Shown: piece after piece, positions 2,940-63,284 of the stretch
How the letters are laid out: each line of letters begins with the position of its first letter
Position numbering within the stretch: position 1 is the first letter of the stretch
Assembly: GCA_964503955.1 (NCBI GenBank)
Contig: CAZDCG010000001.1
Location: forward strand, 109,804-173,803
Length of the DNA: 64,000 bases
Origin: an uncultured Gammaproteobacteria bacterium
Lineage (GTDB): Bacteria; Patescibacteriota; Patescibacteriia; VMEV01; CAYQCH01
Direction of reading: 5' to 3'
Notes under the pieces: generated by a model
Databases searched by the model: none
Told to the model about the DNA's origin: nothing
What the model saw: only the letters and a program-made list of their open reading frames with translations
Program-made: the position numbers and the translations under genes

Positions 2940-4331
2940 TCAGGCCAGCTCCTCCGCCAATCGGTAAATGTCGCCAGCTCCCATAAAGAGAAGCACGTCA
3001 TCTTTTCTAACGATTTGGCTGAGCTTGTCTTTCAATTCAGCAAGATTCCCGCCATACATGACCTTTCTTTGCTGTTCGCGGCGAAGGTCGCGTTCTTTGA
3101 TTGCGTCAACCAGCATATGCGCATTCATTTCCTTGTCGGAAAGGACTTCGCGCCCGGCAACATCATAGATATCAGGAATGATAACCAGATCCGCTTCATC
3201 AAAGGAAGCGACAAAATCATTGAAAAGAGCTTTTGTTCGATGACGGGTATGCGGCTGAAAAATGGCGATAAGGCGGCGATCTCCGTAAAAATCTCTCGCC
3301 GCTTCAAGCGTGGCATGCACCGCTGAGGGATGATGCGCGTAGTCGCTGATCACCGCAGCCATATTGTACAGCCCAAGAATCTGAAAGCGGCGCCAGGTGC
3401 CTTTAAAGTGTGCAAACCCCATGGCGATTTGCTCAGGCGATACGCCAAGATGCAGGGCAACGGAGGTAGCGGCAAGCGCATTATAGACATTAAAGCGGCC
3501 GGGAAATGGAAAATGCCATTCGCCTAATTCCTGTCCATGCGCGGAAATATCGACCACCTGCTTGCCTTTGATGGCGCGCCGGTTTCTTCCCAAGACATCC
3601 GCCGTCGTGCGCATGCCAAATGTCTTGACCTGGCAATTTGGCAACGTGAGTTTTTTTACCCCCTCGTCATCATGGTTGTAGACAAGAAGCCCGTCATTTG
3701 GCAGCTTATCAACGAGTTTTTGAAATGCACTATAGTAAGCTTCTTCCGTGCCGAAATAATCAAGGTGATCCGGCTGCATATTGGTAATCACCACGATTTG
3801 CGGATTGAATTCCAAAAAATGTTCTTTAAACTCATCCCCTTCAATGACCAAATACTCCGAAGCCCCTCCGCGGAAATTGCATCGCCATTCATTAACGATG
3901 CTTCCAACCATGACGGTTGGATCACAACCCGCATTGGCCAATACATGCCCAAGCATTGCCGTTGTAGTTGTTTTCCCTTTGTTTCCGGCAATGACAATGG
4001 TCTTGTACTTCTTTGAAAGTTCCCCCACCGCTTGAAAATTTGTCATGGTCGCAATATCAAGCTCCTTAGCCCTGACTAGCTCGGGGTTATCCTGCGGGAT
4101 GGCGTCATTGTAGATGACAAGTTCAATATCTTCTGAAACAGTTGATGCCTCATGTCCCGCAAAGACCGAAGCCCCTTTTTCAGCCAGTTGATCTGTCACA
4201 ATATTGGAATGCAAGTCTGAACCGGAGACCACAGCTCCGCGCGCAAGAAAAAAATGTGCGACGTAGGAAATCCCAATGCCGCCAATTCCGACAAAATGCA
4301 CGCGTTTTTTCTCTTCAATGCGCATAATCAA
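2940..4331 (-). CDS. murC: UDP-N-acetylmuramate--L-alanine ligase
   Basis: VHFVGIGGIGISYVAHFFLARGAVVSGSDL... Mur ligase N-terminal, central and C-terminal signature. Confidence 0.9.
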   Translation of the reverse strand: MIMRIEEKKRVHFVGIGGIGISYVAHFFLARGAVVSGSDLHSNIVTDQLAEKGASVFAGHEASTVSEDIELVIYNDAIPQDNPELVRAKELDIATMTNFQAVGELSKKYKTIVIAGNKGKTTTTAMLGHVLANAGCDPTVMVGSIVNEWRCNFRGGASEYLVIEGDEFKEHFLEFNPQIVVITNMQPDHLDYFGTEEAYYSAFQKLVDKLPNDGLLVYNHDDEGVKKLTLPNCQVKTFGMRTTADVLGRNRRAIKGKQVVDISAHGQELGEWHFPFPGRFNVYNALAATSVALHLGVSPEQIAMGFAHFKGTWRRFQILGLYNMAAVISDYAHHPSAVHATLEAARDFYGDRRLIAIFQPHTRHRTKALFNDFVASFDEADLVIIPDIYDVAGREVLSDKEMNAHMLVDAIKERDLRREQQRKVMYGGNLAELKDKLSQIVRKDDVLLFMGAGDIYRLAEELA

Positions 4332-6574: not shown

Positions 6575-7977
6575 ATGCTTGATCTTAGCTGCTGTACGGC
6601 TTGGTTGAACTGATCTCCGCGGTCAAATTCATTCTTGAACAGCCCGAAGCTGGCGCAGCCGGGAGAAAGCAGGATTACCGTTCCCTCACCCGCCAGAAGA
6701 TAAGCCTGCTTGACGGCATCCTGCATATTGGCTGCCTGAACCTGTTCAATTGATTCTGAAACAACCTGCCTGAAGCGATCCGTTCCCTCGCCAGGGAGCC
6801 AGACAATTGCTTTGACGCGCTCTACCTCTTGAGCGGCCTGCTCAAAATCAAGTCCTTTATCCGATCCGCCGGCAATCAGCACGATCGGACGGCCCTGCAT
6901 GGCCTTTAATCCGGCAACCAGCGCCACGGGAGTAGTTGATGTGGTGTCATTGATGAAGGTGCGTCCTTTCAGCTCATCGATGAATTGCAGACGCCCTTCA
7001 AGAGAACGGAATGAACCGATTTGCTCCTGCAGCGGCTTGAGTTCGGATTCCACCTGCCGCACGGCAGCGACCGCGGCAAGGATATTGTCGTAATTATGCT
7101 CGCCGCGAAGCGGAACCTGATTCACGTCAACAAGCTCGGTTTCTTTACCGTTCAGCCGCTCTATGACTTTGGACCCGCGCAGGAAATAACCTTCGAGCTC
7201 CTGCGAACGGTCATACCACCGGACCTTCGCTTGCGTTCTCTCGCCGATCTCTTTTGTAAAATCATTCGTATGGTTGATGATGGCCACCTGTTCAGGCGTT
7301 TGGTGCTTGGTGATCACTTCTTTTACCGCCGCGTAAGCATTCATATCGCCGTTATAACGATTGAGATGATCAGGGTAGACATTGAGCAAGACCGCTATAT
7401 CCGGACTTTGCTGCTTGCGGTCAAGATATTCGAGCATGAAGTTGGACAATTCAAGCACCACATAGTCATCTTCCTTTACACCGTCAAGAAATTCCAGCGG
7501 TGATTGCTTGGCGATATTGCCCCCAAGCCAGACTTTTTTCGGATAGGCTTTCAGCAAATGGGCGATCAAAGCCGTAGTCGTGCTCTTCCCCCTTGTTCCC
7601 GTAATCCCGATGATTTTGGACGGACATTGCGAGAAAAAAAGATTCATTTCCGTTTCAACGGGAATATCATGCTCAATAGCGAGCTGTACAAAACGAGATG
7701 TTACCGGCACGCCTGGGTTTGGCACGACCAGATCAGCTTTGAGAATATCCGCTTCATCATGGCCGCCAAGCTTCCATTCGATCGTGCCTTCATAGTTGAT
7801 TTTTCGCGCGTACACCTTCACGCGCTCCACCTGCCGAGCAAGCTCCTCCTCCCTCTTTAAATCTGTAATCACCACATGCGCGCCTTGGCGTAAAAAAAAG
7901 CATGCCGCGGCATAACCGCTGCCGTGCTCGTACTGGCCAAGCCCCAGGATCAAGATGGTTTTTCCTTTATAGTTCAT
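6571..7977 (-). CDS. murD: UDP-N-acetylmuramoylalanine--D-glutamate ligase
   Basis: KTILILGLGQYEHGSGYAAACFFLRQGAHVVITDLK... MurD N-terminal Rossmann plus Mur ligase core. Confidence 0.9.
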   Translation of the reverse strand: MNYKGKTILILGLGQYEHGSGYAAACFFLRQGAHVVITDLKREEELARQVERVKVYARKINYEGTIEWKLGGHDEADILKADLVVPNPGVPVTSRFVQLAIEHDIPVETEMNLFFSQCPSKIIGITGTRGKSTTTALIAHLLKAYPKKVWLGGNIAKQSPLEFLDGVKEDDYVVLELSNFMLEYLDRKQQSPDIAVLLNVYPDHLNRYNGDMNAYAAVKEVITKHQTPEQVAIINHTNDFTKEIGERTQAKVRWYDRSQELEGYFLRGSKVIERLNGKETELVDVNQVPLRGEHNYDNILAAVAAVRQVESELKPLQEQIGSFRSLEGRLQFIDELKGRTFINDTTSTTPVALVAGLKAMQGRPIVLIAGGSDKGLDFEQAAQEVERVKAIVWLPGEGTDRFRQVVSESIEQVQAANMQDAVKQAYLLAGEGTVILLSPGCASFGLFKNEFDRGDQFNQAVQQLRSSM

Positions 7978-8099
7978 ACTCCCATCATTTTAGCAGATTC
8001 ATCAACCATTGCACGGTTTAAAAGACACACAGACTCTTCAGATTTTACAGACACACAGACAAGGACATCTCCTCCATAATTGGTTTTTGTCTGTAAGTC

Positions 8100-8831
8100 T
8101 TAGAAGTCTGTGGATCTGTGATTCTTTATCCCTATAAAATTCCTAATCTCCACCCTCAACTCTTCCGGATCCCGGCGGTATGATGCCCAGGCAGGATCCT
8201 CAAATGTGCAGATACCGCTTAGCTCAATCTGGTGTTCAGGCACCCCCATCTCTAGGCAAAGCAGCTTATTGGCCAGCGGCAGATCAAGCCCGTTCCCCGC
8301 TTTTGTGTCCGTTATGACGGAAGTCCCTGGAAATAAACGCTTAAATTGGCTAAGTCTGTCATCCTGGACATTAGAAATGTCGTAGCAATTCCCGCAAATA
8401 GACGGCCCCGTCGCCATGAAAATTTCGGATGGATCAATATGGTATTCATGCTGAAAGGCTTTGACGGCCTCCTGAACAATTTTTTGGCTCGTCCCTTTCC
8501 AGCCGGCATGAACGACCGCGCAAGCCCTCTTTTGTGGAGCATAAAAAAAGACCGGTACACAGTCGGCTGTTCTGACGGCCAAAAGACAGCCGGGGACGTT
8601 TGTAATCAACGCGTCCGCGTCTTGCTCATCTGTTGGTTTTTGTCCGGATGAAATCGATATAACCGCTTTTCCATGCACCTGCCGCGCGGCGTAGATCGAT
8701 GTATTTGAAACACCTGTCTCTGCCGCCAGACAATCCCGCCAGTCCTGTGTGCAAGCTTGTTTCCACCTCTTGGAGGTACTGCCATGAATCAGCTCGGGGA
8801 ATTGAGAGAGTAGTTTTGAGGTCCAGACCAT
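8100..8831 (-). CDS. pgeF: Peptidoglycan editing factor PgeF / YfiH (DUF152 laccase-domain purine nucleoside phosphorylase family)
   Basis: LIHGSTSK...DADALITNVPGCLLAVRTADCVPVFFYAP...VVHAGWKGT signature. The ORF-track start at 8906 is inside the upstream repeat element. ATG at 8831 is preferred. Confidence 0.8.
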   Translation of the reverse strand: MVWTSKLLSQFPELIHGSTSKRWKQACTQDWRDCLAAETGVSNTSIYAARQVHGKAVISISSGQKPTDEQDADALITNVPGCLLAVRTADCVPVFFYAPQKRACAVVHAGWKGTSQKIVQEAVKAFQHEYHIDPSEIFMATGPSICGNCYDISNVQDDRLSQFKRLFPGTSVITDTKAGNGLDLPLANKLLCLEMGVPEHQIELSGICTFEDPAWASYRRDPEELRVEIRNFIGIKNHRSTDF

Positions 8832-8895
8832 ATGGGGTAAACGTACCAAATGTTTCCAAACGAGCCAAACGTTTCCAGAGCCGTCTAAATCAAGA
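8832..8895 (-). repeat. 5'-UTR periodic-unit element (copy upstream of pgeF), ending ...TTTGGTACGTTTACCCC-ATG in gene orientation
   Basis: Gene-orientation sequence is ctctGGAAACGTTTGGCTCGTTTGGAAACATTTGGTACGTTTACCCCATG. The same unit array and junction are found upstream of rplK (49411..49507) and yidC (50741..50835). Confidence 0.55.
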
Positions 8896-8928
8896 ACAAG
8901 TTCCACAAAAATCCACCCGTTAACAATA

Positions 8929-10143: not shown

Positions 10144-10256
10144 TCACTACGAATTACAAATGGCTACAAATCTACAAATGAACAGCTACTCAATTTACAG
10201 ATTTGTAATGATTCGTCATTTGTAGTGTTTTCAAGGATTGACCCAATGAATAAAAG
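10144..10256. promoter_or_regulatory. Divergent dinB / islet-ORF control region carrying two copies of an ATTTGTAA-N(0-3)-(G)ATTCGT motif (candidate SOS operator)
   Basis: 10148-10161 is tacgaattacaaat (the motif on the minus strand, 5 bp from the dinB start). 10201-10222 is atttgtaatgattcgtcatttg. Equivalent motifs sit upstream of lexA and tatD. Confidence 0.5.
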
Positions 10257-10315: not shown

Positions 10316-11111
10316 CGTGTCCGACAAGAGGCTCCGTGGGCTTGAGCGTCGGTGGAAGGAAAGCGGCAGTATCGAGGATGAGGTTAAACTGCTACAGGAA
10401 CGTGTAAGAATGGGGGATCTCACCCAAGAGCGACTCAGGCTGGCGTCCTATTGCGGCCACCCTGCGTCCCTTGCTGCCCTAAACATGATTGGACCCACCT
10501 CCCCTGATTCTCTCGAAACGCTGGAGGAGTGGTTTAGAGGGCTTGAGGCCTGGGGAATCGAATCCCACTTAAGAGGCAGCCTAGCTGTTACAAAGCTCGT
10601 GTTGCCCTACTTTGAGAGAAGCACCCCGGAAGATCTCCGCCCCCGACAAGCTATCCAGTCTGCTATAGATTGGATCGCCTGTCCGTGTGAAGAGCATGTA
10701 GAGAAGACAAATTCAGCATCCGGAAGGCTGATGAATGATGATTTCTGCGATAGCTGGATTGGCGCCCCACCCCGCTCCAGGCCAGTCGGCATGCAACCTG
10801 GCGAACTGATGCTGATGGCGATATCGGTCAACTGGGAAAACAACATTCCACAAGAGGTCGCTTGTATCGTTTGGGATGTCTCTTATAGCTTTTGTGATGA
10901 CGAGAATCCGCTTGAACGGGTCATCCAAGCCATTAGAAACACACTTCAACTGCTGAACAGGATCAGCAACGAGACCCAAACGGACGCATCATGCAATGTA
11001 CCCATGATTCATGACTCCATCACGCAAGTCCTGACCCCCTGGGCCCTGGGATATCGGGATCCGGTTTTCGAACCAGACTTCCTTCCTCCCCTGCCAAGAG
11101 AAGGGACCTAG
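10316..11111 (+). CDS. Hypothetical protein, about 265 aa (GTG start; alternative ATG at 10257), in GC-rich SOS-linked islet
   Basis: aaGAGAAGGGAActaaccGTG RBS and GTG are analogous to ORF 954. There is no recognisable domain. It contains IDWIACPCEEH and FCDSWIG cysteine pairs. Its stop codon lies inside a 32-bp hairpin repeat. Confidence 0.45.
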
Positions 11112-11132
11112 CCGCGAGGCGATGGTCCCTTC
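11100..11132. repeat. 32-bp perfect hairpin GAAGGGACC-tagccgcgaggcgat-GGTCCCTTC, copy 1
   Basis: A 9-bp stem and 15-nt loop overlapping the stop of ORF 10316..11111. A near-identical copy (one loop substitution) is at 11523..11556. Confidence 0.6.
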
Positions 11133-11522: not shown

Positions 11523-11556
11523 GAAGGGACCTAGCCGCAAGGCGATGGTCCCTTTC
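11523..11556. repeat. 32-bp hairpin repeat, copy 2 (GAAGGGACC-tagccgcaaggcgat-GGTCCCTTT), followed by a T-rich tract
   Basis: It lies between convergent ORFs 11202..11513 and 11558..11806 and is a likely bidirectional terminator. Confidence 0.55.
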
Positions 11557-13038: not shown

Positions 13039-13185
13039 ATGAGAAGTTGTAAATGATGGTGGGTACGAATTACGAATTTACAAATTTCTTTTTAGTATCT
13101 TTTCGTTTAATAAGAAGCTTGTCTTATTTGTAAATTTGTATCAGATTTGTAATTTGCACCTTCTGCGATTCGTGATGTTTGTATT
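13039..13185. promoter_or_regulatory. lexA upstream region with a candidate promoter and repeated ATTTGTAA / ATTCGT motifs (candidate LexA autoregulatory operator)
   Basis: 13064-13087 is tacgaattacgaatttacaaattt (the motif on the gene strand, 26 bp from the start). 13145-13153 is atttgtaat and 13167-13181 is gattcgtgatgtttg. ATTTGTA is repeated several times between 13125 and 13153. Confidence 0.5.
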
Positions 13186-13361
13186 GTATACGAACAAAAC
13201 ACGAACGTCAAGTGTTGCCATAATTAGCTAAAATCGGAGATTTGTTCATATCTTGTTCGCTTTATCCACAGGTTAAGATCTTTTCCTTTTAAGGGCCAAG
13301 AGAGGTACGGCAAATCTGGCCATCGAGAACTCCCCCAAGAACATCTATCCTTTATCCAAAT

Positions 13362-13422: not shown

Positions 13423-13539
13423 GACTGAATAAAGCGTGGAGTAAGAGAAAACATAGCAAGGGGGTTCTTGCGAACGTCCATACCCGTCGTCTGAAAATCT
13501 GTGCGTCTTAAACGTCTAACAAGTTTGTGCGTCTATAAA

Positions 13540-13575
13540 ACAAAACGCCCTGGTTTTTGCCAAGGGCGTTTTTCA
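13540..13575. terminator. Bidirectional rho-independent terminator AAAACGCCCT-ggtttttgcca-AGGGCGTTTTT
   Basis: A perfect 8-bp stem flanked by an A-run and a T-run, immediately 3' of the DUF378 gene. Confidence 0.7.
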
Positions 13576-15814: not shown

Positions 15815-15846
15815 TGTCGGGCGCGGGGCTCTGTCCCCGCCCGACT
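15815..15846. repeat. GC-rich hairpin repeat copy 2 (TGTCGGGCGCGGGGCTCTGTCCCCGCCCGAC)
   Basis: Read on the minus strand it is followed by ATTTTT, so it is the likely intrinsic terminator of the malic-enzyme gene. The family is also at 2856 and 57776. Confidence 0.6.
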
Positions 15847-17580: not shown

Positions 17581-17586
17581 AAAGCC

Positions 17587-17650
17587 GGTTAACGAGTTAA
17601 CGGGTTCACGGCCTAACGCATTAACAAGACAACTCGTTAACCCGTGAACA
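17587..17650. repeat. GTTAAC / AACTCGTTAAC / CCGTGAAC repeat cluster (two units in opposite orientation)
   Basis: ggttaacgagttaacgggttcacgg ... aactcgttaacccgtgaaca. The 14-mer ttaacccgtgaaca recurs exactly at 25591. The core AACTCGTTAAC is also at 25605, 44015 and 58419 (variant). Confidence 0.6.
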
Positions 17651-17660
17651 TGTATTCATA

Positions 17661-25575: not shown

Positions 25576-25588
25576 CTGCCCTGCCACA

Positions 25589-25620
25589 CCTTAACCCGTG
25601 AACACATTAACTCGTTAACC
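25589..25620. repeat. GTTAAC-family repeat abutting the sufU start codon
   Basis: ccTTAACCCGTGAACAcATTAACTCGTTAACC-ATG. It shares a 14-mer with 17637 and a 16-mer with 44012. Confidence 0.6.
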
Positions 25621-31551: not shown

Positions 31552-32724
31552 ATGACTCTAGAGCAGCACCTCAAACGTTTCACGCAAGATCAGCGATTTA
31601 CTCCAGAATTTTTCGACTTGTCCAAAAGCATAGACCGAAAGAGATTGGCAGCATACTTTGACCAAAACTTGATTGTCGAAGTAAACGATTCTTATACGGA
31701 CCAATTAGAGGAATTATTTCAAATAGACAATCCCAGATTAGTTCATGCACAAGCGTATGAAACCTCATTGGCTGAATTTCTTGAGGAAATAGAATCGCGA
31801 GCCCCGCTTTACCAACAAGGTAAATGGGTCTATTTCCCATGGAACAGAAAATTGATCCATATTCTTGATGAACCATTTTTTCAAAAAGTCCGGTTCTCAA
31901 GAAACCGTAATTATATCAGCCGTGACGAACAAGCAAATTTCTACCACAGCTCTATCGGTATAGCAGGCTTGAGTGTTGGAAACAGCATCGCAACGACCAT
32001 CGTAATGCTCGGGGGAGCAAAACATATCCGATTGGCTGATTTTGATGAGCTTAGCTTATCAAACTGCAATAGGATCCGCACGAGCATTGAAAACCTTGGA
32101 ATTCCAAAAATTATTATCACGGCCAGACAAATCTACGAACTCAACCCGTACGCAAACGTGCAGATATTCCCTGAGGGGATCACCGAAGAAAATATTGAAG
32201 CATTCTTGAGTTCATCGCCCCCCCTCGATATCGTTATCGACGAGCTTGATAACCTCGCCATGAAATACTTGTTAAGAATGAAAGCGAAGGAAAACAGAAT
32301 TCCCGTACTTATGGGGACAGATAACGGTGACGACTGCATTATCGATTTGGAACGATACGATCTTGACCCCACACGGGAGATTTTTCACGGCCGCCTAAAC
32401 GGTGTAGAATTCAATGATCTAAAAAATCTCACAAAAGCACAAATAGGAAAAATCGCGGGGCGCCTTATCGGCATTGAAAATATTTCCTCGAGAATGATGG
32501 AATCTCTTCCCGAAATCGGAACATCGCTCATTTCATGGCCCCAGCTTGGAAGCGCGGCTCTTATGAATGGAGCTGCTCTGGCCTACTGTGCTCGCAGAAT
32601 TCTCAACAAGCAGCCAATTGCAGACGGCAGATGTTTCCTTTCCGTTGAAAAAGAGCTTTTGCCAGCCAAATCATATGATGCAGAACTGCAGAAAAGGAAA
32701 AAACTAGCTAGCCAATTAATGTGA
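31552..32724 (+). CDS. E1/ThiF/MoeB-family adenylyltransferase with about 170-aa N-terminal extension
   Basis: Rossmann nucleotide loop SIGIAGLSVGNSIATTIVMLGGAKHIRLADFDELSLSNCNRI matches the ThiF family. There are no C-terminal CxxC pairs. ATG at 31552 is 1 nt after the PaaK-like stop, so the ORF-track start at 31429 is rejected. Confidence 0.7.
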   Translation: MTLEQHLKRFTQDQRFTPEFFDLSKSIDRKRLAAYFDQNLIVEVNDSYTDQLEELFQIDNPRLVHAQAYETSLAEFLEEIESRAPLYQQGKWVYFPWNRKLIHILDEPFFQKVRFSRNRNYISRDEQANFYHSSIGIAGLSVGNSIATTIVMLGGAKHIRLADFDELSLSNCNRIRTSIENLGIPKIIITARQIYELNPYANVQIFPEGITEENIEAFLSSSPPLDIVIDELDNLAMKYLLRMKAKENRIPVLMGTDNGDDCIIDLERYDLDPTREIFHGRLNGVEFNDLKNLTKAQIGKIAGRLIGIENISSRMMESLPEIGTSLISWPQLGSAALMNGAALAYCARRILNKQPIADGRCFLSVEKELLPAKSYDAELQKRKKLASQLM

Positions 32725-37321: not shown

Positions 37322-37471
37322 GGTTGCGATCCTTAAAGTGCCCTAAGTATAGGGGACTCATTGACGAGAATCAAGCAGCAAAAATCCCCTGTATCCTCAG
37401 ACATAAAAGACCAATAGACTGTCCGCATGTCTATTGGCCTTTAGGGTCTATTCAGTCTGATACGTCTGCAC

Positions 37472-38023
37472 CTAAAATTCTCCACCGCCTGAAATAATAT
37501 TATCCACGGCCGCCCAGGTGCTTTGTCCGCCCTGAGGGACAAGGATGATCGCCTCATCACCGACGGAACCGCGATAGTAGGTGACCGAAGCAAGCAAGAC
37601 TTTATACAGCCGATTTTCCACCAGTACCCGGTACTCGCCGGTTTCTTTGTCTTTTACCAGCTTGCCGCGCAAGCGCTCCCTGTCAATTGGTTTGATTTGT
37701 TTGTAAATAAACGCACCATCTGAAGAAATAGTGAGCTTAAGGATATCACCCTCCACCAGCTTGGATTTTGAAGCGTAATTTGCCGGCACGGAATACCGTC
37801 TTCCATCAGGCCCGATCATCTGGTAGCCGTCAAACACCCCTTCAATGATATTTCCCTCTTCGCCCGTTTCGCTTTCCGGAGTCAGCTGCAGGCGGTCTCG
37901 ATCTTCGTCGGAAATTTCAAGATTGCCGCCTTCAATTTCCCGGACCATGGTTTCAACCTGTTCCAGACTTTTCTTGATATTGGCAAGAATTTTGTGCACG
38001 GCTTTTAATTTCGCGTCTTCCAT
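37472..38023 (-). CDS. Hypothetical protein (183 aa)
   Basis: A clean ORF with no family assignment. Confidence 0.4.
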   Translation of the reverse strand: MEDAKLKAVHKILANIKKSLEQVETMVREIEGGNLEISDEDRDRLQLTPESETGEEGNIIEGVFDGYQMIGPDGRRYSVPANYASKSKLVEGDILKLTISSDGAFIYKQIKPIDRERLRGKLVKDKETGEYRVLVENRLYKVLLASVTYYRGSVGDEAIILVPQGGQSTWAAVDNIISGGGEF

Positions 38024-38119
38024 ACGTTGTTTTTGCTGTTTGTTTTGTTCTGCAAGTCTGCTATTTCAAGAAAACTATACCACAAAACAAATACAGTGCG
38101 CGAGTGGAAAAGTTTTCAA

Positions 38120-43786: not shown

Positions 43787-44010
43787 AGGTCAAAAGGCAA
43801 TCCCTGCTTTAATGGCAGGGAAACATCATCTTTCGATGAAGTGCGCTCATTATACAGGTGAGAAAAGAATTGTCAATAATACCCCGTCTGTGGTCTATTA
43901 TACCACGGCTTGCCAGACGGACCAGAGGTTGTGCCAAGCGTTCCCGGACCAGGCTGGCACTGAATGCTGATTGCTAAAGCCCAAGCTAGCGCTAGCTTCC
44001 GTGCCCCCCT

Positions 44011-44048
44011 ACAACTCATTAACTCGTTAACCGCAACTCATTAACTAT
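44011..44048. repeat. GTTAAC-family repeat (acaactcattaactcgttaaccgcaactcattaact) overlapping the rodA stop
   Basis: The 16-mer cattaactcgttaacc is identical to 25605..25620. Confidence 0.55.
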
Positions 44049-45135
44049 ATATATGCACACTCTGCGCCAAACCAAGCATCATGAACACAGCCACAAGATA
44101 GGATCCTCCGGCACTGATAAGCGGCAATGAAATACCCGTGACGGGTATCAAGGCAAGATTCATTGCCATATGCAACATGGCCTGCCCTACGACCGCAAGC
44201 AAGACTCCGATCGCGATCAGCTGGCCAAAGTCGCTTCTGGTATTTCTTGCAATATGAATGAGCCGCCAGGAAATAATCACCAGCAAAGCGACAAAGACAA
44301 AAATGCCGGCAAATCCAAGTTCTTCGCCAATCACTGCAAAAATGAAATCGGTTTGCCGTTCAGGCAAAAATTGCAGTTGGCTTTGCGACCCAGAACCGAT
44401 TCCGCGCCCGAGAAGACGCCCGGATCCAATGGCGATCAGCGATTGCGTCACATTATAACCGGTACCAAGCGGGTCTGCTGCCGGATCAAGAAAGCTCACC
44501 AAGCGGCTTTTCTGGTATGGCTGCAAAAAGGTCGTCCAACCGACTAAAACAATCCCGAGAAAACCAAAGAACATCAAGCCGATCTGCCATTTGGATAATC
44601 CAAGCAAAAGCACAAATCCAAGCCAGATCAGAAAAAGAATCACGGCAGATCCCAAATCCGGCTGCGCAATCGTTAAAAAACCAAGAAGACCGACCGACAA
44701 GCCGGATACAATGAGCGGCTTCCATGTTTTCAGATGTCTCCCCTGCTTGCTGAAATACGCCGCGAGAATCAGAATGAGTAAAAATTTCACCAGCTCGACA
44801 GGTTGCCAAACGAAAAAACCGAAATCAAGCCAGGCGCGAATACCTCGAATAACTTCGCCCAAGGGCGTAAAGAGCAAGACAAGAAAAAAGATACAGAGAA
44901 GATACAGCCAGGGATAAAACGGCTGCCAGGTACGGTAATCAACCGTCATGAAAAAGAGAAATGCCCCCATGCCAAGCACCCCGTAAAAGAGTTGCTTGTA
45001 CAGCAGCGAAATCTGCTGCTCCTGAGAAGCCAGCCCCACGCTGTAGAGAATGGTCGCTCCGATTGAAAAAATCAGCAGCATGCTCACGAGCAGAATTTTA
45101 TCCGAACGCCGAAGCGCGGCCAAAACCTTTTGCAT
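44041..45135 (-). CDS. rodA: SEDS-family protein, second copy (RodA-like)
   Basis: A 10-TM SEDS protein outside the dcw cluster (ftsW is at 5408). No adjacent mrdA/mreB, so the RodA assignment is by exclusion. Confidence 0.6.
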   Translation of the reverse strand: MQKVLAALRRSDKILLVSMLLIFSIGATILYSVGLASQEQQISLLYKQLFYGVLGMGAFLFFMTVDYRTWQPFYPWLYLLCIFFLVLLFTPLGEVIRGIRAWLDFGFFVWQPVELVKFLLILILAAYFSKQGRHLKTWKPLIVSGLSVGLLGFLTIAQPDLGSAVILFLIWLGFVLLLGLSKWQIGLMFFGFLGIVLVGWTTFLQPYQKSRLVSFLDPAADPLGTGYNVTQSLIAIGSGRLLGRGIGSGSQSQLQFLPERQTDFIFAVIGEELGFAGIFVFVALLVIISWRLIHIARNTRSDFGQLIAIGVLLAVVGQAMLHMAMNLALIPVTGISLPLISAGGSYLVAVFMMLGLAQSVHIYS

Positions 45136-45162: not shown

Positions 45163-46152
45163 CTAGAATCTGCGCCGTTGATCAAACTCCCGGAACCCCG
45201 GATCAAATTCCCCCTGAAACGAACTGAATGATGCGCGGTCAAGAATATTCACGCTTGGAATGATTTGCACGGTTGTAATCGCCGAAAGATTCTGCGTGAA
45301 ACGCACAGAAAGCGGCTTGCTCACGCCTGAAGGAAAATCCGGAATGACCACGGAATCAATCGCCGCGAGTCGATTTCCCGTAAAGAGCGCCACCTGTACT
45401 TCCATGCTGACGTAATTATACGCTGTCGCATTCGCAATGGTTGCGGTGACCTCGCTTACCGGCAGCTGATCGCTGAGCTCGGATTGCCTTGAGGAAAGGA
45501 AGCGTTTATTGGTGATCAAAAAATTCAGATAATCGGGCGCCCATTGCTCATAATTGGTCACGCGCTGCCACTCTTCATTCTCAAAGAAGACCTGAGGCGT
45601 GCCGGTCACAATGCCTTCTTGATTGAGCGCGAGAAGATATTTCTCTTCTCCAGGCAAAAAATACGTTTCCTGCGCCTGCAGAAACCGCCCGCCGATAGAA
45701 AACTGGTAGCTCACCCGTTCAAGCGCCCACTTGGTATTAGGGTTGCGCACAAGAACAGCGATATCCGAAGATTGCCCGCGCCCTGAAATGACCTGGCGGG
45801 ATACAACCTCAAGAGGTTGTATCGCATAACTTTGATGAACCTCTTCAATGTTGATATAGGTCTGTCCGGCTGTTTCTGCCCCTCGCCGGTATGATTCATA
45901 CTCAAAACCATAAAAACGGATCAATGCGAATAACGCATATCCGTATGTGATAGCGCAAAATGCGACCAGAAAACCAATAAGAAGCCTCCTGAGCTGCTCT
46001 CGATGCGTGACAAACCAATACCCAAATTTGAGCTCCTGCTCTGTCAGCTGCTGCACGTCAACGGATTTTGTATTGAACCCTTCTGATTGATTTGGCATAC
46101 ATCTTTGATAATCAGTCTGGCATGTCTGGCAACGTCTTTGAATGTCCGACAC
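45163..46152 (-). CDS. Hypothetical membrane-anchored protein (329 aa)
   Basis: N-terminal CxxC pair, one TM, and a large extracytoplasmic domain. Confidence 0.4.
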   Translation of the reverse strand: MSDIQRRCQTCQTDYQRCMPNQSEGFNTKSVDVQQLTEQELKFGYWFVTHREQLRRLLIGFLVAFCAITYGYALFALIRFYGFEYESYRRGAETAGQTYINIEEVHQSYAIQPLEVVSRQVISGRGQSSDIAVLVRNPNTKWALERVSYQFSIGGRFLQAQETYFLPGEEKYLLALNQEGIVTGTPQVFFENEEWQRVTNYEQWAPDYLNFLITNKRFLSSRQSELSDQLPVSEVTATIANATAYNYVSMEVQVALFTGNRLAAIDSVVIPDFPSGVSKPLSVRFTQNLSAITTVQIIPSVNILDRASFSSFQGEFDPGFREFDQRRRF

Positions 46153-46281
46153 GTCTGCGCAGCTATTGTATCACAGAGCTGATTTAGCCCCAATGTGTCA
46201 AGGTGCCTGTTTCGCGCTTCTATGCTACAATCTTGGTATCAATAGCTCCTCTGAAAAAGGGGAATTTCTCTTTATAAAGGT

Positions 46282-48315: not shown

Positions 48316-48340
48316 AAACGGTTAACGGGTTAAAAAGATG

Positions 48341-48370: not shown

Positions 48371-48437
48371 CACTGAACAGGGATTTTTTGATGCGTTTGT
48401 CTGTGAGTCTTAGGATCCAGGTCTGTGGCCCGCCAAC

Positions 48438-48540: not shown

Positions 48541-48735
48541 ATGGCAAAAATGAAGACCCCGTGGATTGTCCGGTATTTCCGTGAGTCCTTTATTGAGCTT
48601 CAAAAGGTTGTCTGGCCTTCGCAGGAAACCGTGCGCAAGCATACTATTCTGGTTATCGCGATCAGCTTATTCGTGGCTGTGTATTTTGCGGCTTCCGACT
48701 ACGTTCTTAACTTCGCATTGGAATCTCTCATCTAA
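48541..48735 (+). CDS. secE: Preprotein translocase subunit SecE
   Basis: A 64-aa protein with a single C-terminal TM and a conserved amphipathic N-terminus (REVKKVVWPS-type: QKVVWPSQETVRKHT). Confidence 0.85.
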   Translation: MAKMKTPWIVRYFRESFIELQKVVWPSQETVRKHTILVIAISLFVAVYFAASDYVLNFALESLI

Positions 48736-48789
48736 GTCTCGTCTCTCCTAGCCTGGCTAATCTAGCCAGTCTAGCTGGTCTAAACAACT

Positions 48790-49338: not shown

Positions 49339-49368
49339 CTTAAAGACGGGTCTTCGGGTATGCCTCTT
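49339..49368 (+). terminator. Weak hairpin AGACCC-ttaaaga-CGGGTCT + TCGGGT after nusG
   Basis: A 6-bp stem. The T-tract is poor. Confidence 0.3.
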
Positions 49369-49410
49369 TCAGGCAGCTTCTTACTCGAATCCCCCATCTT
49401 TAAAAGACGC

Positions 49411-49507
49411 TGCCAAATGTGCCAAACGAGCCAAACGTTTCCAAATTTTCTCTAAGAATCTGGTAACGTTTGGGAACGTCTGGTGACGTTTGGTACGTTT
49501 ATCCCCT
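49411..49507 (+). repeat. 5'-UTR periodic-unit element (copy upstream of rplK)
   Basis: Left array tgCCAAATGTGCCAAACGAGCCAAACGTTTCCAAA. Spacer ttttctctaagaa. Right array TCTGGTAACG TTTGGGAACG TCTGGTGACG TTTGGTACG (exact 10-bp period) then TTTATCCCCT-ATG. The arrays are mutually inverted. Confidence 0.6.
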
Positions 49508-49933
49508 ATGGCAAAACCACTCAAAACCATCATCAAATTGCAAATCATGGGCGGAGCGGCTAACCCGGCTCCTCCAGTAGGTCCTGCGCTTGGTCAGCAT
49601 GGACTCAACATCGCTGAATTTTGTCAGAAATTCAACGAAGCAACGCAAGACAAGCGCGGACAGGTCGTTCCTGTTGAAATCTCGGTTTATGAAGACCGAA
49701 CCTATGATTTCAAGATGAAAACACCTCCGGCGGCCGAACTGCTCAAGCAGGCTGCCAAGGCGAAGAAGGGCTCTGGAAAACCAAATACCGATAAGATCGG
49801 AACCGTTACCAAAGCTCAGATTCGTGAAATCGCCGAAATCAAAATGCCCGATCTGAACACGCATAATGTGGAATCAGCGATGCGGACCATTGAAGGTACC
49901 GCTCGCCAGATGGGTATCATTGTTACTGAATAA
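49508..49933 (+). CDS. rplK: 50S ribosomal protein L11
   Basis: [35 protein letters not shown]... The start is set at MAKP (the element abuts it). Confidence 0.9.
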
Positions 49934-49985: not shown

Positions 49986-50663
49986 ATGTCTCGATCAAAA
50001 CGTTACCAGGCAGTTGCCGAGAAAGTCGATCCGTCAAAAACCTATACCATCGATGAAGCTGTAGCTTTGTTGAAAGAAACCGTGAAGACAAAATTTGATC
50101 CGTCTGTTGAGCTGCATGCCCGCTTAGGCATCGATGTTTCCAAAAGCGATCAGCAGGTCCGCAGCACCATTGACCTTCCTCACGGAAGCGGCAAGCAGGT
50201 CCGCATCGCGGTATTTGCCGAAGAGGAAAAGCAGGCCGATGCCGCAGCTGCCGATGTGGTTGGCGGCGAAGACTTGATCGAAAAAATCCAGAAATCAGGA
50301 AAAATTGACTTTGATGTGGCGGTTGCCACGCCAGGCATGATGAAGCATATGGCGAAAGTCGCAAAAGTGCTTGGACCAAAGGGATTGATGCCTTCTCCAA
50401 AGAATGAAACTGTTACGCCAAACGTCAAAGAAGCTATTGAAGCTCTGAAGAAAGGAAAAATCGCTTTCAAGAACGACGCTACAGGCAATGTGCATGTGAT
50501 TGTCGGCAAGGCCAGCTTCGCTGAGCAGCAGCTCAAAGAAAATCTGGTTGAAGCAATTGACGCAATCAGAAAAGCAAAGCCGTCTTCTAGCAAAGGAACC
50601 TACCTCAAGACACTCTCCGTGAATGTTACCATGGGGCCGGGTATCCGCATTACCACCGCGTAA
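49986..50663 (+). CDS. rplA: 50S ribosomal protein L1
   Basis: KRYQAVAEKVDPSKTYTIDEAVALLKE...FDPSVELHARLGIDVSKSDQQVR. Confidence 0.9.
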   Translation: MSRSKRYQAVAEKVDPSKTYTIDEAVALLKETVKTKFDPSVELHARLGIDVSKSDQQVRSTIDLPHGSGKQVRIAVFAEEEKQADAAAADVVGGEDLIEKIQKSGKIDFDVAVATPGMMKHMAKVAKVLGPKGLMPSPKNETVTPNVKEAIEALKKGKIAFKNDATGNVHVIVGKASFAEQQLKENLVEAIDAIRKAKPSSSKGTYLKTLSVNVTMGPGIRITTA

Positions 50664-50705: not shown

Positions 50706-50740
50706 TAGGCAGTAGCCTTGGAAAAATGGTATAATATTTT

Positions 50741-50835
50741 AAACGTTGCCAAATCCGCCAAACGGGCCAAATGTTCCCAGACTTTCTTTCAAAGATGCTT
50801 GGTAACGTTTGAGAACGCTTGGTACGTTTATCTCT
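50741..50835 (+). repeat. 5'-UTR periodic-unit element (copy upstream of yidC)
   Basis: aaaCGTTGCCAAATCCGCCAAACGGGCCAAATGTTCCCAGA then ctttctttcaaagat then GCTTGGTAACGTTTGAGAACGCTTGGTACGTTTATCTCT-ATG. It is preceded by an extended -10 TGGTATAAT at 50727-50735. Confidence 0.6.
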
Positions 50836-51606
50836 ATGGCTTTTCTCTGGCATGAAATCTTCTTCAGGCCGCTATTGAACGTCCTTATCGGTCTTTACAA
50901 TACAGTCGGGTTTGAAAACCTTGGAATTGCCATCATTGTCTTAACCATTCTTGTCCGCCTCCTGCTTTTGCCTTTCTCTCTCAAAGATTCCGCGGCCAAG
51001 AGAAAACGGGAATTGCTGGAAAAGGAGCTTGCAGAAGTAGCCAGGCATTATGCCAATACGCCAAGCATTCTGCGTGAGGAACAGAAACGGCTTTTCAAGG
51101 AATATCGTTTCCGGCGCTGGCCAAGAATCGTTAGTTTAGCCTCCCAGGGTTTTGTGCTCTTGATCCTCTATCAGGTTTTTATCGGAGGAATCAAGCTCAG
51201 CGCGATTGTCGACGAGCTGTACGCATTCGTGCAGGTTCCCCGCACAATAGATACGATGCTGCTTGGAATCGACATTGCAAAACCAAGCTTCTCCCTCACG
51301 CTGGTGACGGTTCTGGTTCTATTCGCCAGCATTGTCTATGAACATGGCGGCATCCGGACCCGATGGACGGCACGGGATCTGCTCTATGCAGTAGGCTTGC
51401 CGGCTGGAACCTATCTTTTTCTCATCATGCTGCCGGCCGTAAAAGCCTTATTCGTCCTTTCTTCGTTGATCTTTAGTATTTTGCTTCGAGCCCTTACAGA
51501 TTTCTTTGCAGGAATTGCTGAACAGGACCGCCTTATGGCTGAAAAGGCCGCAGCAAAAGCCAAACTGAAGCCTTCGCTCCCTCATCCTAAAGAACGTTTT
51601 AAGTAA
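50836..51606 (+). CDS. yidC: YidC/Oxa1-family membrane protein insertase (short form)
   Basis: LGIAIIVLTILVRLLLLPFSLK signature, 5 TM. The start is at MAFLWHE. Confidence 0.8.
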   Translation: MAFLWHEIFFRPLLNVLIGLYNTVGFENLGIAIIVLTILVRLLLLPFSLKDSAAKRKRELLEKELAEVARHYANTPSILREEQKRLFKEYRFRRWPRIVSLASQGFVLLILYQVFIGGIKLSAIVDELYAFVQVPRTIDTMLLGIDIAKPSFSLTLVTVLVLFASIVYEHGGIRTRWTARDLLYAVGLPAGTYLFLIMLPAVKALFVLSSLIFSILLRALTDFFAGIAEQDRLMAEKAAAKAKLKPSLPHPKERFK

Positions 51607-56015: not shown

Positions 56016-56039
56016 AGTTCAGGTATCTTAACATATGAG

Positions 56040-56500
56040 ACTCAAGCAGCAATGAGATACACTGCGGATGAAATGTGTACATAGGCGGACTCTGGACAAG
56101 TCTGAGCTTTTCTGCTATAGTCGGTGCAAAGGTTTCACCGGGGCCGGCGGTCGTAAGGTCTCGCCTTCCCCCTGGGCCCCATACACCCAAGCCCCGGTGA
56201 AACTCTACATTTAGGGAGAGAAGCTCGGCGAGGCGGACCTCGACCGAAGCTGAATGGATAGGGGTTACCTATGCCCCGCGCCAATTGGATTACGGCATGG
56301 TTCGCGCTAACCGTGCTTCTCCCCCTTTCAAACTAGTTCTTGACAGTCCGGCATGGCTGGACTATAGTGCGACAGTCTACGAATGTCCATTCGGACAGAC
56401 GACTAACGAGGTGTGGCTCTACCGTTTTCCCCACTTTCCCCCTTTTCGGTACGTGACACACCAGGGGGCAGCACGCGATTCCCCGTTGCGAGCTGCCCCC
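56040..56500. ncRNA. ORF-poor, highly structured about 460-nt region (candidate structured RNA of unknown class)
   Basis: Nested perfect inverted repeats TTCACCGGGGC/GCCCCGGTGAA (56135/56190), AGGGAGAGAAGC/GCTTCTCCCCCT (56212/56315), GGGGGCAGC/GCTGCCCCC (56464/56491), plus local hairpins. I could not match it to RNase P, tmRNA or SRP consensus by eye. Confidence 0.25.
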
Positions 56501-56503
56501 ACT

Positions 56504-56537
56504 AAAAAAGCTCTCTTCAATCGAAGAGAGCTTTTTG
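56504..56537. terminator. Bidirectional terminator AAAAAAGCTCTCTTC-aatc-GAAGAGAGCTTTTT (rmuC 3' end)
   Basis: A perfect 10-bp stem flanked by A6 and T5. Confidence 0.75.
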
Positions 56538-56554
56538 GTTTTTCAAGATACTGT

Positions 56555-57673: not shown

Positions 57674-57775
57674 AAAGCTGTAAAGCTAAAAATCTTAAAA
57701 GCTGAAAACGGGACAGTTGGTTTTTTTCAGCTTTTGAGTTTTTTAGGTTTCCTACAATTCGGTCACAGGCTGTGT

Positions 57776-57812
57776 CTGCGACCGGGCGGGGTCGGAGCCC
57801 CACGCCCGACAG
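57776..57812. repeat. GC-rich hairpin repeat copy 3 (reverse orientation: TGTCGGGCGTGGGGCTCCGACCCCGCCCGGTCGCA)
   Basis: It lies downstream of the idi-like gene on the minus strand. An A/T hairpin terminator (agctgaaaa...ttttcagct) follows at about 57690..57730. Confidence 0.55.
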
Positions 57813-58398: not shown

Positions 58399-58405
58399 AG
58401 ACAGT

Positions 58406-58438
58406 GGTTACGAGTTCACAGATTAACGAGTTAGCGCG
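58406..58438. repeat. Degenerate GTTAAC-family repeat (ggttacgagttcacagattaacgagttagcgcg)
   Basis: It contains a TTAACGAGTTA variant of the core. It lies between tatD and the idi-like gene. Confidence 0.4.
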
Positions 58439-58447
58439 TTTGTTCAT

Positions 58448-59293: not shown

Positions 59294-59316
59294 ATCGATT
59301 GGTGATGTAAATCCTG

Positions 59317-59341
59317 CAAATGACGAATCCGTTACAAATCT
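59317..59341 (-). promoter_or_regulatory. Third locus carrying the ATTTGTAA-N-GATTCGTCATTTG motif (upstream of tatD)
   Basis: Gene-strand reading is agATTTGTAAcgGATTCGTCATTTGcagg. It is almost identical to the dinB distal site agATTTGTAAtGATTCGTCATTTGtag. Confidence 0.5.
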
Positions 59342-59372
59342 ATAAAAGACTGAATATGGAATTTGTAGTGAG

Positions 59373-61346: not shown

Positions 61347-61439
61347 AGTGCAAAAACCTTAGCAATTTGGACTTTAAATGGCAAGACTCACAGACAAATA
61401 GATTCTTCAGACATAACAGACAAGGATACTGAAATAAAT

Positions 61440-61495
61440 TGACACCAGTCTGTGATGTCTGAGAAGTCTGTGCGTCTGAAAAGTCAGTGAGCGAA
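61440..61495. repeat. TCTGTG/CGTCTGAA repeat (ctgtgatgtctgagaagtctgtgcgtctgaaaagtc) just 3' of mutL
   Basis: An about 40-bp near-identical copy lies inside mutL at 62229..62270. Related GTCTGTG motifs are at 8076-8110, 13490-13530 and 48394-48420. Confidence 0.55.
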
Positions 61496-61502
61496 GCGAA
61501 CC

Positions 61503-63284
61503 CTAGTGCCGATGAAACTTCTTATTCAGCTCCTCCACGCTTAAACCAAATATCGTTGGCCGTCCATGGCAGCAGGAAACTGCATTGTAGGTCTGGATAT
61601 CAGCCATAAGCTGCAACTGTTCCTCGCGCGTAAGCGGCTGGTGAAACGTAACCGCCGCCTTGCAGGCTGCCATCTGCGCGATTGCCATCCGGCGCTCTTC
61701 AACGCTTGAAGGACGGGATGTATCCTGTTCCATTTCTTCAAGCAGATTGAGAAAAAAGTGACGCAAGTCTTTAATGGTTAAATCCTGAGGCACGCCAGTA
61801 AGGCGGAATGTCCGCTCTCCAAATTCTTCGCCCTCAACCCCAAGGGAAGAGAGCATGTCCATTTGTTCCGTCAACAGGCTCCATTGTTTAGCCGAGAGTT
61901 CAAAAACTTCCGGCACAAGCAATTGCTGCACCTTAGGCTTGCTTCCCAGCGCAAGCAGTTTTTCAAGCAAAACACGTTCTGCCGCCGCATGCTGATCAAT
62001 CATCAGCAAGTCCTGACCGTCTTCAACAATGAGATAGCAATTATGGCTTTGACCGATGAGTTTCCACGTACCAAGCAGCCCCATCTCCTTATCCTCCTCT
62101 CTCACCTGCGACGGAAATGACTGTTTCTGCGTCTTAAAGGAGAAAGAAAGACCTCCCTGGATGGAATGCGGCCCATCATTTTTTGCAGACATGCCGCCGC
62201 CAAATTCAGGATAATGAGCAAGCTGTGGATTCGCCTGTGATGTCTGAGAAATCTGTGCGTCTGAATAGTCTGCGGTGCCACTTGACACCGATTCGGCAAC
62301 GAGCCTGCTTAAAACCTGCTTCACCGCATGATACACCTCTCTATATACCGCCGATGGATCCGCGAACTTCACTTCCGCCTTTCTTGGATGCACATTGACA
62401 TCGACAAGATCAGGTGCAATTGTCAGGTGCACGACAAAGGCAGGCTTGAATCCATTGGCGATGAGCGTTCCATACCCCTGCTGGATGGCTCTGGCAATGG
62501 TGTAATCTGATACCGCCCTTCCGTTCACGAAAAGATACTGCTCCGTCTGTCTCTCACGAGCCGATGAAGGATAACCAAGAAATCCGTTTAAGACTAAGGA
62601 GGCGCGCTGATAATGAAGCTCGACAAGTTCCTTGGACAGGTCCGGCCCAAGCACGTCCTGCACGCGGTGCTTCCAGTTATCGGTTTTCGCATAGGAAGCG
62701 ATTTGCTTGCCATTATGCGTCAGCTTGAATGAGATATTCGGCAAAAGCAGCGCCTGCCTCGTAAAAACATCCACGATTTGCCGAAACTCAGCATTGGCGG
62801 ATTTTAAAAATTTCTTTCTTGCCGGAACAGTATCAAATAAACCTTTCACCTCAATGATAGTTCCTGTCTGGCCCGCCGCTTCTTTTGATGTGATTTGTCC
62901 CTCGATAACATGAAGCTCGGTTGCGGCAAGACTTGTTTCCTCCTTGGTCAGCAGTCGAAATGATGAGACGGAAGAAATCGCCGCCAGAGCCTCTCCGCGA
63001 AAACCGAGTGTGCTGATTTTATGCAAATCATTGAGCTCGCGGATTTTACTGGTCGCATGCCGGCGCAAAGCCATCTGCGCATCGTCGGGCGACATCCCCG
63101 AACCATTGTCGATCACTTTGATCAATCGATGACCGCCCTCCTCAATCTCAACCGTAATCTGATCAGCACCTGCATCAATCGAATTCTCCACCAGCTCTTT
63201 GACAACCGAAGCGGGGCGTTCAACCACTTCGCCGGCTGAGATTTTGTTGATCAGATTTTGGTCTAATAAATGAATTTTAGCCAT
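61503..63284 (-). CDS. mutL: DNA mismatch repair protein MutL
   Basis: GHKL ATPase N-terminus (ISAGEVVERPASVVKELVENSIDAGA), a flexible linker, and a C-terminal dimerisation domain. Confidence 0.9.
   Translation of the reverse strand: MAKIHLLDQNLINKISAGEVVERPASVVKELVENSIDAGADQITVEIEEGGHRLIKVIDNGSGMSPDDAQMALRRHATSKIRELNDLHKISTLGFRGEALAAISSVSSFRLLTKEETSLAATELHVIEGQITSKEAAGQTGTIIEVKGLFDTVPARKKFLKSANAEFRQIVDVFTRQALLLPNISFKLTHNGKQIASYAKTDNWKHRVQDVLGPDLSKELVELHYQRASLVLNGFLGYPSSARERQTEQYLFVNGRAVSDYTIARAIQQGYGTLIANGFKPAFVVHLTIAPDLVDVNVHPRKAEVKFADPSAVYREVYHAVKQVLSRLVAESVSSGTADYSDAQISQTSQANPQLAHYPEFGGGMSAKNDGPHSIQGGLSFSFKTQKQSFPSQVREEDKEMGLLGTWKLIGQSHNCYLIVEDGQDLLMIDQHAAAERVLLEKLLALGSKPKVQQLLVPEVFELSAKQWSLLTEQMDMLSSLGVEGEEFGERTFRLTGVPQDLTIKDLRHFFLNLLEEMEQDTSRPSSVEERRMAIAQMAACKAAVTFHQPLTREEQLQLMADIQTYNAVSCCHGRPTIFGLSVEELNKKFHRH

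Follow-up and report, generated by a model that had tools for sequence, protein, structure and literature searches.

In a 64-kb stretch of DNA from an uncultured bacterium (hereafter the window), arrays of short repeated words stand directly before the start codons of rplK, yidC and a pgeF-like gene. Searches with GyrB, YidC and LexA place the window in Patescibacteria/Parcubacteria, within the candidate phyla radiation (CPR), where the nearest other genomes share ~80% identity for GyrB and ~56% for YidC. We found that five homologous arms in these three places form one repeat family, called here family A, made up of two full elements and one half element. Judged from sequence, the gene-side end of the element is probably the extended -10 promoter of a leaderless mRNA. 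The element itself is, on balance, likely to be a dispersed, copied repeat comparable to a miniature inverted-repeat transposable element (MITE) or a Correia element. That both hold together, with the end of a MITE/Correia-like repeat acting as a portable leaderless promoter, is a reading that we favour tentatively. An earlier annotation of the window (the original prediction) had offered three options, namely a translational control leader, an iteron-like binding array and a promoter-carrying miniature mobile element. The last of these fits best, with a junction that reads as an extended -10 box at leaderless spacing.

The scheme that we infer for promoter activity, leaderless start sites and mobility would run as follows. 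A short, non-coding, quasi-palindromic repeat, in which a T-rich spacer separates two arms of four sub-repeats (9-10 bp) each, would be copied into the few bases that separate upstream signals from the ATG. Its outermost gene-side sub-repeat, TTGGTACGTTTA, would double as an extended -10 box (TGGTACGTT), with a TTGGNN -35-like box 17-18 bp upstream. From a position 7-8 nt before the ATG this putative promoter would place the transcription start on the A of the ATG or beside it and yield a leaderless mRNA, presumably a normal mode of expression in a Parcubacteria lineage that lacks Shine-Dalgarno (SD) sequences. At yidC the element would restore a promoter at the spacing that its own insertion had destroyed, and at rplK and the pgeF-like gene it would add one. 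The phased sub-repeats are presumed binding sites for a protein that copies or regulates the element.

Architecture of family A

We examined 2.5 copies (two full and one half) in 73 kb, that is, the window together with a 9-kb extension (L133). The relatives used were four genomes with the gene order gyrB-secE-nusG-rplK-rplA-yidC-band7, namely L126, L128 (GCA_964352335.1), L130 and L143, and a distant one, L141, for the comparison of pgeF and lexA. Strain-level copies were found in Logan runs SRR118438xx and in one Joint Genome Institute (JGI) sample, and the element is present in 5 of 5 strain-level contigs.

Each arm is a tandem series of YTGGNNACGT units of 9-10 bp, and every unit keeps TTGG and ACGT. 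The full element before rplK (49401-49501, + strand, 101 nt, ends TAAAAGACG...ACGTTTA) consists of a left arm of four CCAAAYG-type units with a period of 9-10 (~49411-49447), the spacer TTTCTCTAAGAAT (~49448-49459) and a right arm of four YTGGNNACGT units with a period of 10 (49460-49501). Its counterpart before yidC (50740-50830, + strand, 91 nt) has three units in each arm around the spacer TTTCTTTCAAAGATG, and its ends are inverted (TAAACGT...ACGTTTA). Before the pgeF-like gene lies a half element (8838-8878, - strand) of four left-arm-type units, which has no partner arm and has a spacer-like stretch (8879-8897) ahead of it. The placing of all three copies agrees with the original prediction, as do the inverted left arrays and the T-rich spacer of the rplK and yidC copies.

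Searched with an nhmmer profile of these arms, the window yielded exactly five (E-values 4e-7 to 5e-13), with unit-by-unit correspondence, and zero matches were obtained in the 9-kb extension and ~100 kb from seven relatives. The pgeF arm is of the left type: over one stretch it is identical to the rplK left arm (22/22), and its identity to the two left arms is 93% (rplK) and 89%. Hence, the element is quasi-palindromic and either end can face a gene. The terminal inverted repeats are formed by arms of ~40 nt, which are 77-86% alike in inverted orientation. Both full elements are short and non-coding, and their sole open reading frames (ORFs) are spurious TTG-start extensions of rplK and yidC. 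An exact 10-bp period had been claimed for the 3' array of each copy. It holds for the right arms, where YTGG starts are spaced by 10/10/10 nt (rplK) and 10/10 nt (yidC) according to Tandem Repeats Finder and direct counting, but not for the left-type arms, where the spacing is 9/9/10 (rplK), 9/9 (yidC) and 10/9/10 (pgeF).

Promoter-like ends and leaderless gene starts

The junction 12-mer TTGGTACGTTTA occurs three times in the 64 kb in exact form (expectation ~0.01) and ten times when up to two mismatches are allowed (shuffle mean 3.1). All three exact copies directly precede an ATG, at 49508 for rplK, at 50836 for yidC and at 8831 (- strand) for the pgeF-like gene. The 12-mer includes TGGTACGTT, which fits the extended -10 pattern TGnTAnnnT, and all three window copies of TGGTACGTT sit 7-8 nt ahead of the annotated ATG. 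Before rplK this -10-like box spans 49491-49499 (+ strand), with TACGTT ending 8 nt before the ATG; before yidC it spans 50820-50828 (+ strand) and lies 7 nt from the ATG; before the pgeF-like gene it spans 8840-8848 (- strand), 8 nt from the ATG at 8831-8829. We also found -35-like boxes 18 bp upstream for rplK (TTGGGA), 18 bp for yidC (TTGGTA) and 17 bp for pgeF (TTGGCT). The arrays overlap both the -10 and the -35 candidates, and the last unit holds the -10 box.

The gene-facing ends of the three copies are identical (12/12), one of them terminating an arm of the left type. At the two gene-distal ends, TTGGCAGCGTCTTTTA and TTGGCAACGTTTAA, the hexamer no longer has its TA. A strain variant (L005) carries 4 substitutions in the 97-nt element versus 4 in ~770 nt of flanking, mostly coding, sequence; none of the four within the element falls in TGGTACGTT (0/4) and one falls in an ACGT core. 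Identical gene-side ends combined with decayed distal ends would be the pattern expected from selection for a gene-side promoter.

The gene starts to which these distances refer are consistent with relatives. With the ATG as start, YidC is 256 aa long, and its relatives have 255-258 aa. ORF callers take TTG 50809 instead, which gives 265 aa and reaches into the element. The pgeF-like product carries a Cu-oxidase_4 domain, and its start codon is orthologous to that in L141.

The original prediction took the pyrimidine-rich junction to replace an SD sequence. We found an SD core upstream of 9/56 starts in the window, versus 10.8% at random positions, and a T at position -1 in 43/56 starts, operon-internal genes included. 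One subgroup of Parcubacteria without the anti-SD motif has been described (PMC9297842). The genome is SD-less, and the SD-free, pyrimidine-rich junction is a property of the genome and not of the element. With SD absent across the genome, the junction does not replace one.

A layout of TGnTAnnnT followed by 5-9 nt, an ATG or GTG and an ORF of at least 60 codons is 8-fold overrepresented in the window (10 matches versus ~1.2 in shuffles). The ten matches are murD, metG, a UvrD/PDDEXK helicase gene, the DciA gene, the gene starting at 20618, the three element copies and two unannotated ORFs. The boxes 6-9 nt before the ATG of the five genes other than the element-bearing ones are found at 7995-7977, 61364-61346, 56033-56015, 53018-53001 and 20635-20618, respectively (all - strand). 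TAnnnT is located 6-9 nt before 13/57 gene starts versus 3.7% of all ATGs. In relatives, TGnTAnnnT boxes before an ATG were seen at 10001 in L126, L128 and L130 (yidC) and at 6821 and 9028 in L143; at yidC, 4/4 relatives (L126, L128, L130 and L143) have TGnTATAaT 6-8 nt before the ATG. Judged by an extended -10 box at 6-9 nt from the ATG, about a quarter of the genes appear leaderless. The canonical boxes at the same ATG spacing in window genes and in yidC of relatives point to leaderless mRNAs that are widespread in this group of Parcubacteria. Promoters of the extracytoplasmic function (ECF) type (AAC...CGT) and of the Bacteroidetes type (TTTG...TAnnTTTG) fit the junctions less consistently by eye. 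We prefer the extended -10 interpretation because it matches other promoters of this genome.

Orthologous sites in relatives and other word arrays

Family A is absent at both the rplK and the yidC site in 4/4 relatives with the same locus (L126, L128, L130 and L143); these four are distant, the closest relatives reaching ~56% identity for YidC. Upstream of rplK we identified a structured leader (49350-49392, + strand; TTCGGGTAT-hairpin-GCTTCTTACTCGAA), which is conserved and separate from the element. In five genomes it takes the form TTCGRGTAT-hairpin-GCTTCTTRCYCGAA, where the outer stem TTCGRGTA/TRCYCGAA encloses a variable inner hairpin, and compensatory changes are found at 6 of 11 predicted pairs. 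We consider it a candidate L1/L11-operon autoregulatory leader outside Rfam. The gap between this leader and the rplK ATG is 23-24 nt in L126, L130 and L143 and 58 nt in L128, which has a different, shorter insert of 35 nt at this site. In the window, 17 nt plus the 101-nt element lie between.

At yidC, the original prediction had noted an extended -10 box before the element, and this consensus box, TGGTATAAT, is present and intact immediately upstream (50727-50735, + strand). It is separated from the yidC ATG by 9 nt plus the 91-nt element, and removal of the element would leave 9 nt. Hence TGGTATAAT is presumed to be the ancestral leaderless yidC promoter, split from its ATG by the element. 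Together with the absence at orthologous sites in four relatives, this split is further evidence for the mobile-element option. Searches for additional copies gave chance matches only. In a genome collection, TTGGTACGTTTAYCYC matched at 120 loci, each of them fortuitous and in an unrelated genome, the pattern being too short for 596 Gb; in metagenomes, CCAAAYGNGCCAAAYGTTYCCA, an unbiased interior probe, had two fortuitous matches, both inside coding regions.

Family A has company. At least six other families of like architecture, with words of 8-10 nt, are found in intergenic DNA, and ~25 arrays were counted in the 73 kb. They were separated from background by a word-cluster scan; fixed-period autocorrelation failed since periods vary between 8 and 10. 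In most of these arrays, two sets in inverted orientation flank a spacer, and the array stops no more than a dozen bases from an ATG. GTTAAC/CGTTAAC arrays are located at 17581-17660, 25576-25620, 44005-44051 and 58399-58447, CAGAC/GTCTG arrays at 7978-8099, 13495-13540, 46098-46160 and 61347-61502 and also before mutS in L133, and TACAAAT/ATTCGTA arrays at 10144-10256, 13039-13170 and 59294-59372. CTAGC arrays precede nusG and murB, an AAAGCT array precedes rmuC and an AACAAA array precedes the gene ending at 38023. The positions of arrays also include 37440-37471, 38024-38119, 48316-48335, 48390-48430, 48735-48789 and 57674-57750, and in L133 at ~3590-3640 and ~7000-7063.

These other families appear to behave like invasive repeats. 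A CAGAC-family arm upstream of metG (61450-61485) is duplicated in the linker of mutL (62235-62270, - strand), where 34 of 36 positions are identical and the copy is in-frame, encoding ...ADYSDAQISQTSQ...; this recalls palindromic elements inserted in coding genes. At lexA, a promoter conserved in relatives (TTGACG-N17-TATACAAT) encloses GTTCGTGTTTTGTTCG, a GTTC-N7-GTTC direct repeat and candidate LexA box (window ~13180-13215, - strand; ~5935-5965 in L140 and L141). The box lies ~35 nt from the ATG in relatives, and in the window a ~100-nt TACAAAT-type array is wedged between the two. That sister family C, found before lexA and dinB, represents LexA operators was rejected: the conserved lexA promoter and box lie upstream, and the array is extra 5'-untranslated (5'-UTR) sequence. 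L128 has arrays before nusG, TatD, ColV and rplK, and at the orthologous nusG, TatD and rplK the arrays of L128 and of the window genome are built from different words. Arrays are absent from L126 (the closer relative of L128), L130, L143 and L141. Array position kept without sequence conservation argues against regulon-specific operators and favours tolerated insertion sites or structural roles.

The window has several other intergenic and repeat features. A gap of ~540 nt without ORFs (56016-56554), between the UvrD-like helicase gene and rmuC, is kept in L126, L128 and L130. Within it are TTGACA-17-TATAGT, a strong promoter (56340-56368, + strand), and a hairpin of terminator type (56505-56536), which makes the gap a candidate locus for a small RNA of ~170 nt that Rfam does not match. 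A GC-rich hairpin repeat, GTCGGGCGNGGG...CCCCGCCCGAC, is present in three copies (2856-2889, 15815-15843 and 57778-57811), two of them at 5' ends of called ORFs. A 32-nt hairpin repeat, GAAGGGACCTAGCCGC.AGGCGATGGTCCCTT, has two copies (11100-11131 and 11523-11554). The region 31901-32720 comprises 820 nt of coding-like sequence without a long ORF and may be a disrupted gene.

Alternative explanations and known systems

Several observations weigh against a copied repeat with a leaderless promoter at its end. The hexamer TACGTT agrees with the -10 consensus at 3/6 positions only, and a generic promoter scan makes no call there. The intact TGGTATAAT implies that the real yidC mRNA may be a leadered one that includes the element. 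Given the distance of the closest relatives, what we call insertion could also be growth in situ. In L141, the 30 nt upstream of pgeF (8666-8697) read TTTTTTGGCTGGGTATTGTAAGCTACGTTT|ATG and share TTTGGCT followed by TACGTTTA, in the same order as the pgeF arm of the window (chance ~1e-3, a post hoc estimate); part of this arm may accordingly be old native sequence that seeded the family. Only 2.5 copies stand behind the description of the element, and no transposase was found among the ~30 window ORFs scanned against Pfam. No clear target-site duplication was seen at the full copies, a flanking TA being possible; TA is readable at both junctions of both full copies, yet it also belongs to the inverted ends. 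Finally, a -10 box is missing from the gene-side end of the other word families, and donation of a promoter is therefore no rule for the whole class.

Promoter function alone does not account for the exact helical phasing of the units. Such phasing suggests that a protein contacts several of them along one DNA face; this protein could be either a regulator or the enzyme that copies the element. An operator array is the corresponding alternative, which we regard as unlikely. Here, phased YTGGNNACGT units would bind a multimeric regulator on one helix face. Once bound, the regulator would either block or activate the promoter embedded in the terminal unit, and rplKA, yidC and pgeF would be controlled together. 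Right-arm units exactly 10/10/10 bp apart, the TTGG and ACGT kept in each of them and the overlap of the arrays with the putative -10 and -35 boxes are all expected of such an array, and the direct and inverted sets around a spacer resemble known cooperative operators. The possible retention of TTTGGCT...TACGTTTA before pgeF in L141 also speaks for it. However, the four relatives with the same gene order have no array before rplK or yidC, the element changes fast (4 substitutions per 97 nt versus 4 per ~770 nt, one of them in an ACGT core) and the number of units varies between copies. Moreover, the window genome and L128 use different words at nusG, TatD and rplK, a sister-family arm lies inside the mutL coding sequence, and no candidate regulator was found among the ~30 window ORFs scanned against Pfam. 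The iteron-like array of the original prediction is a live rival through its exact phasing, though the mobile element fits better.

Next in order, and also improbable in our view, is a structured 5' leader. The element would be transcribed, from TGGTATAAT for yidC and by read-through from nusG for rplK, and would fold into a long hairpin with a role in mRNA stability or processing (5' stem-loop protection or RNase III cleavage) or in translation; through self-folding, the ATG would again come close to the upstream leader. The rplK copy does fold strongly (-44.9 kcal/mol, z -6.6). For yidC a transcribed hairpin is conceivable, since the start of a transcript from TGGTATAAT would roughly coincide with the first base of the element, whose TAAACGT/ACGTTTA ends pair. 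Other families, too, stand downstream of an extended -10 box and ahead of the ATG (at lexA, at mutS in L133 and at the genes ending at 46098 and 38023). However, folding of the yidC copy, in which the right arm is one unit short, is weak (z -1.8), and the pgeF half copy forms no hairpin (z +0.5). Of the claim that the whole element folds as a long hairpin, only the rplK part is strongly borne out, and pairing is no trait common to all three copies; conservation is seen in the gene-side 12-mer and in how far it lies from the ATG. In the L005 variant, 2 of the 4 substitutions break predicted pairs and none is compensatory, and an Rfam search of the element gave no family match, only sub-threshold, miRNA-like generic hairpins. 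Neither the covariation nor the conservation in relatives that the original prediction looked to was seen. In an SD-less genome, with a hairpin that is not common to the copies and without compensatory change, the notion of a 5'-UTR or translational control leader is weakened.

Least probable is that the arrays are functionless by-products of slippage or template switching (quasi-palindrome growth) in tolerant intergenic DNA, with a fortuitous likeness to a -10 box: rapid change, varying unit number, half copies, many unrelated word families of the same look and arrays present in some lineages and missing in close ones (L128 versus L126) would suit it, but the gene-proximal ends are 12/12 identical, the left-type arm included, and the distal ends have diverged, the 7-8 nt to the ATG are fixed and match the canonical extended -10 boxes of the genome, and at yidC and rplK, where the insertions lie in control regions of essential genes, lost promoter spacing should be costly.

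We compared the element with known systems and found that it belongs to none of those considered (Correia, REP/REPIN, RPE, TIGR, CRISPR and L1 leader). Correia elements (CREE/NEMIS) of Neisseria are non-coding, promoter-bearing MITEs of ~100-150 bp with long terminal inverted repeats and TA insertion. They are intergenic and near gene starts, their ends carry or create -10-like boxes that drive the neighbouring gene, and they form hairpins when transcribed. By analogy, they appear functionally closest to family A: by general description, both are short inverted-repeat elements by genes, with promoter boxes at their ends and hairpins. In contrast to Correia elements, family A shows no sequence relation to them, belongs to the CPR and has arms of four phased 9-10-bp sub-repeats, and its putative promoter is placed for a leaderless mRNA. 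As a genome-filling palindrome, the element resembles REP/REPIN sequences and the RPEs of Rickettsia. REPs and REPINs are also short, palindromic, dispersed repeats that fill intergenic space, and a REPIN consists of two inverted arms and a spacer, whereas the arms here are tandem word arrays and not a single imperfect palindrome. No GTAG head was seen by eye in family-A arms, although no motif search was run, and the Pfam scan of ~30 window ORFs gave no RAYT/Y1 transposase. Like the CAGAC-family (D) arm in mutL, RPEs can be part of a coding sequence and keep its reading frame.

Extended -10 leaderless promoters, common in Actinobacteria, Deinococcus and others, share with family A the TGnTAnnnT box 6-9 nt before the ATG and the lack of an SD; unlike the canonical ones, TACGTT is weak (3/6) and is part of a repeated unit in a dispersed element. 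Among phased operator arrays, MraZ boxes are TGGGN with 5-nt spacers, and the omega repressor, an RHH protein, binds heptad arrays. Such arrays (MraZ with a 10-bp period, omega heptads, CtsR and ParR/parC iterons) likewise have 3-4 direct repeats spaced by one helical turn and direct plus inverted sets that flank or overlap a promoter. Family A, too, has at least three direct repeats at helical spacing over the promoter-like region (10/10/10 bp, with the -10 box in the last unit). It differs in that its sites are not conserved at orthologous genes in the four relatives and that many word families coexist in one small genome.

TIGR arrays, which resemble family A in their short period, in being missed by CRISPR finders and in their frequent occurrence in CPR bacteria, consist of ~36-nt units with two alternating repeats and two 9-nt variable spacers, carry box C/D and adjoin a tas gene with a Nop domain (PMC12045711; bioRxiv 10.64898/2026.09.09.750476). 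This identity was rejected: the period here is 9-10 nt, neither RTGATGA nor CUGA is found in any copy, and the scanned ORFs gave no Nop-domain match. A CRISPR array would have identical repeats of 25-40 nt and unique spacers, whereas the units here are of 9-10 nt and contiguous. Nor is the element the L1-binding leader of the L11 operon, as it is absent in relatives, has no Rfam match and stands apart from the conserved, covarying leader at 49350-49392. On CRISPR and the L1 leader the original prediction had come to the same view. We also considered complementarity between the right arm and the start of rplA (49998-50009), where AAACGTTACCAG can pair over 12 nt, without a mismatch, with CTGGTAACGTTT, the first unit of that arm. 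It is at chance level, with 4 complementary matches of that length observed versus 1.7 expected. The window contains no rRNA gene.

A broader and more speculative reading, which we consider doubtful, is that ~100-bp cassettes of phased 9-10-bp words, in several families and genome-wide in this lineage and in L128, are exchangeable promoter/operator modules between leaderless promoters and gene starts. Each word family may then be read by its own multimeric DNA-binding protein or by the copying protein. If so, regulons in a regulator-poor genome would be wired by the spreading of cassettes and not by the point evolution of operators.

The CPR/Patescibacteria are uncultured, and knowledge of transcription and translation initiation in them is close to nil. 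Sequence-level evidence from the window speaks for an SD-less lineage with many apparently leaderless genes, and there is a consequence for annotation, as gene callers extend yidC into the element. If confirmed, family A would be a compact natural portable leaderless promoter placed in the critical spacer of the essential genes yidC and rplK, and even reduced genomes would be open to heavy colonisation by repeat families.

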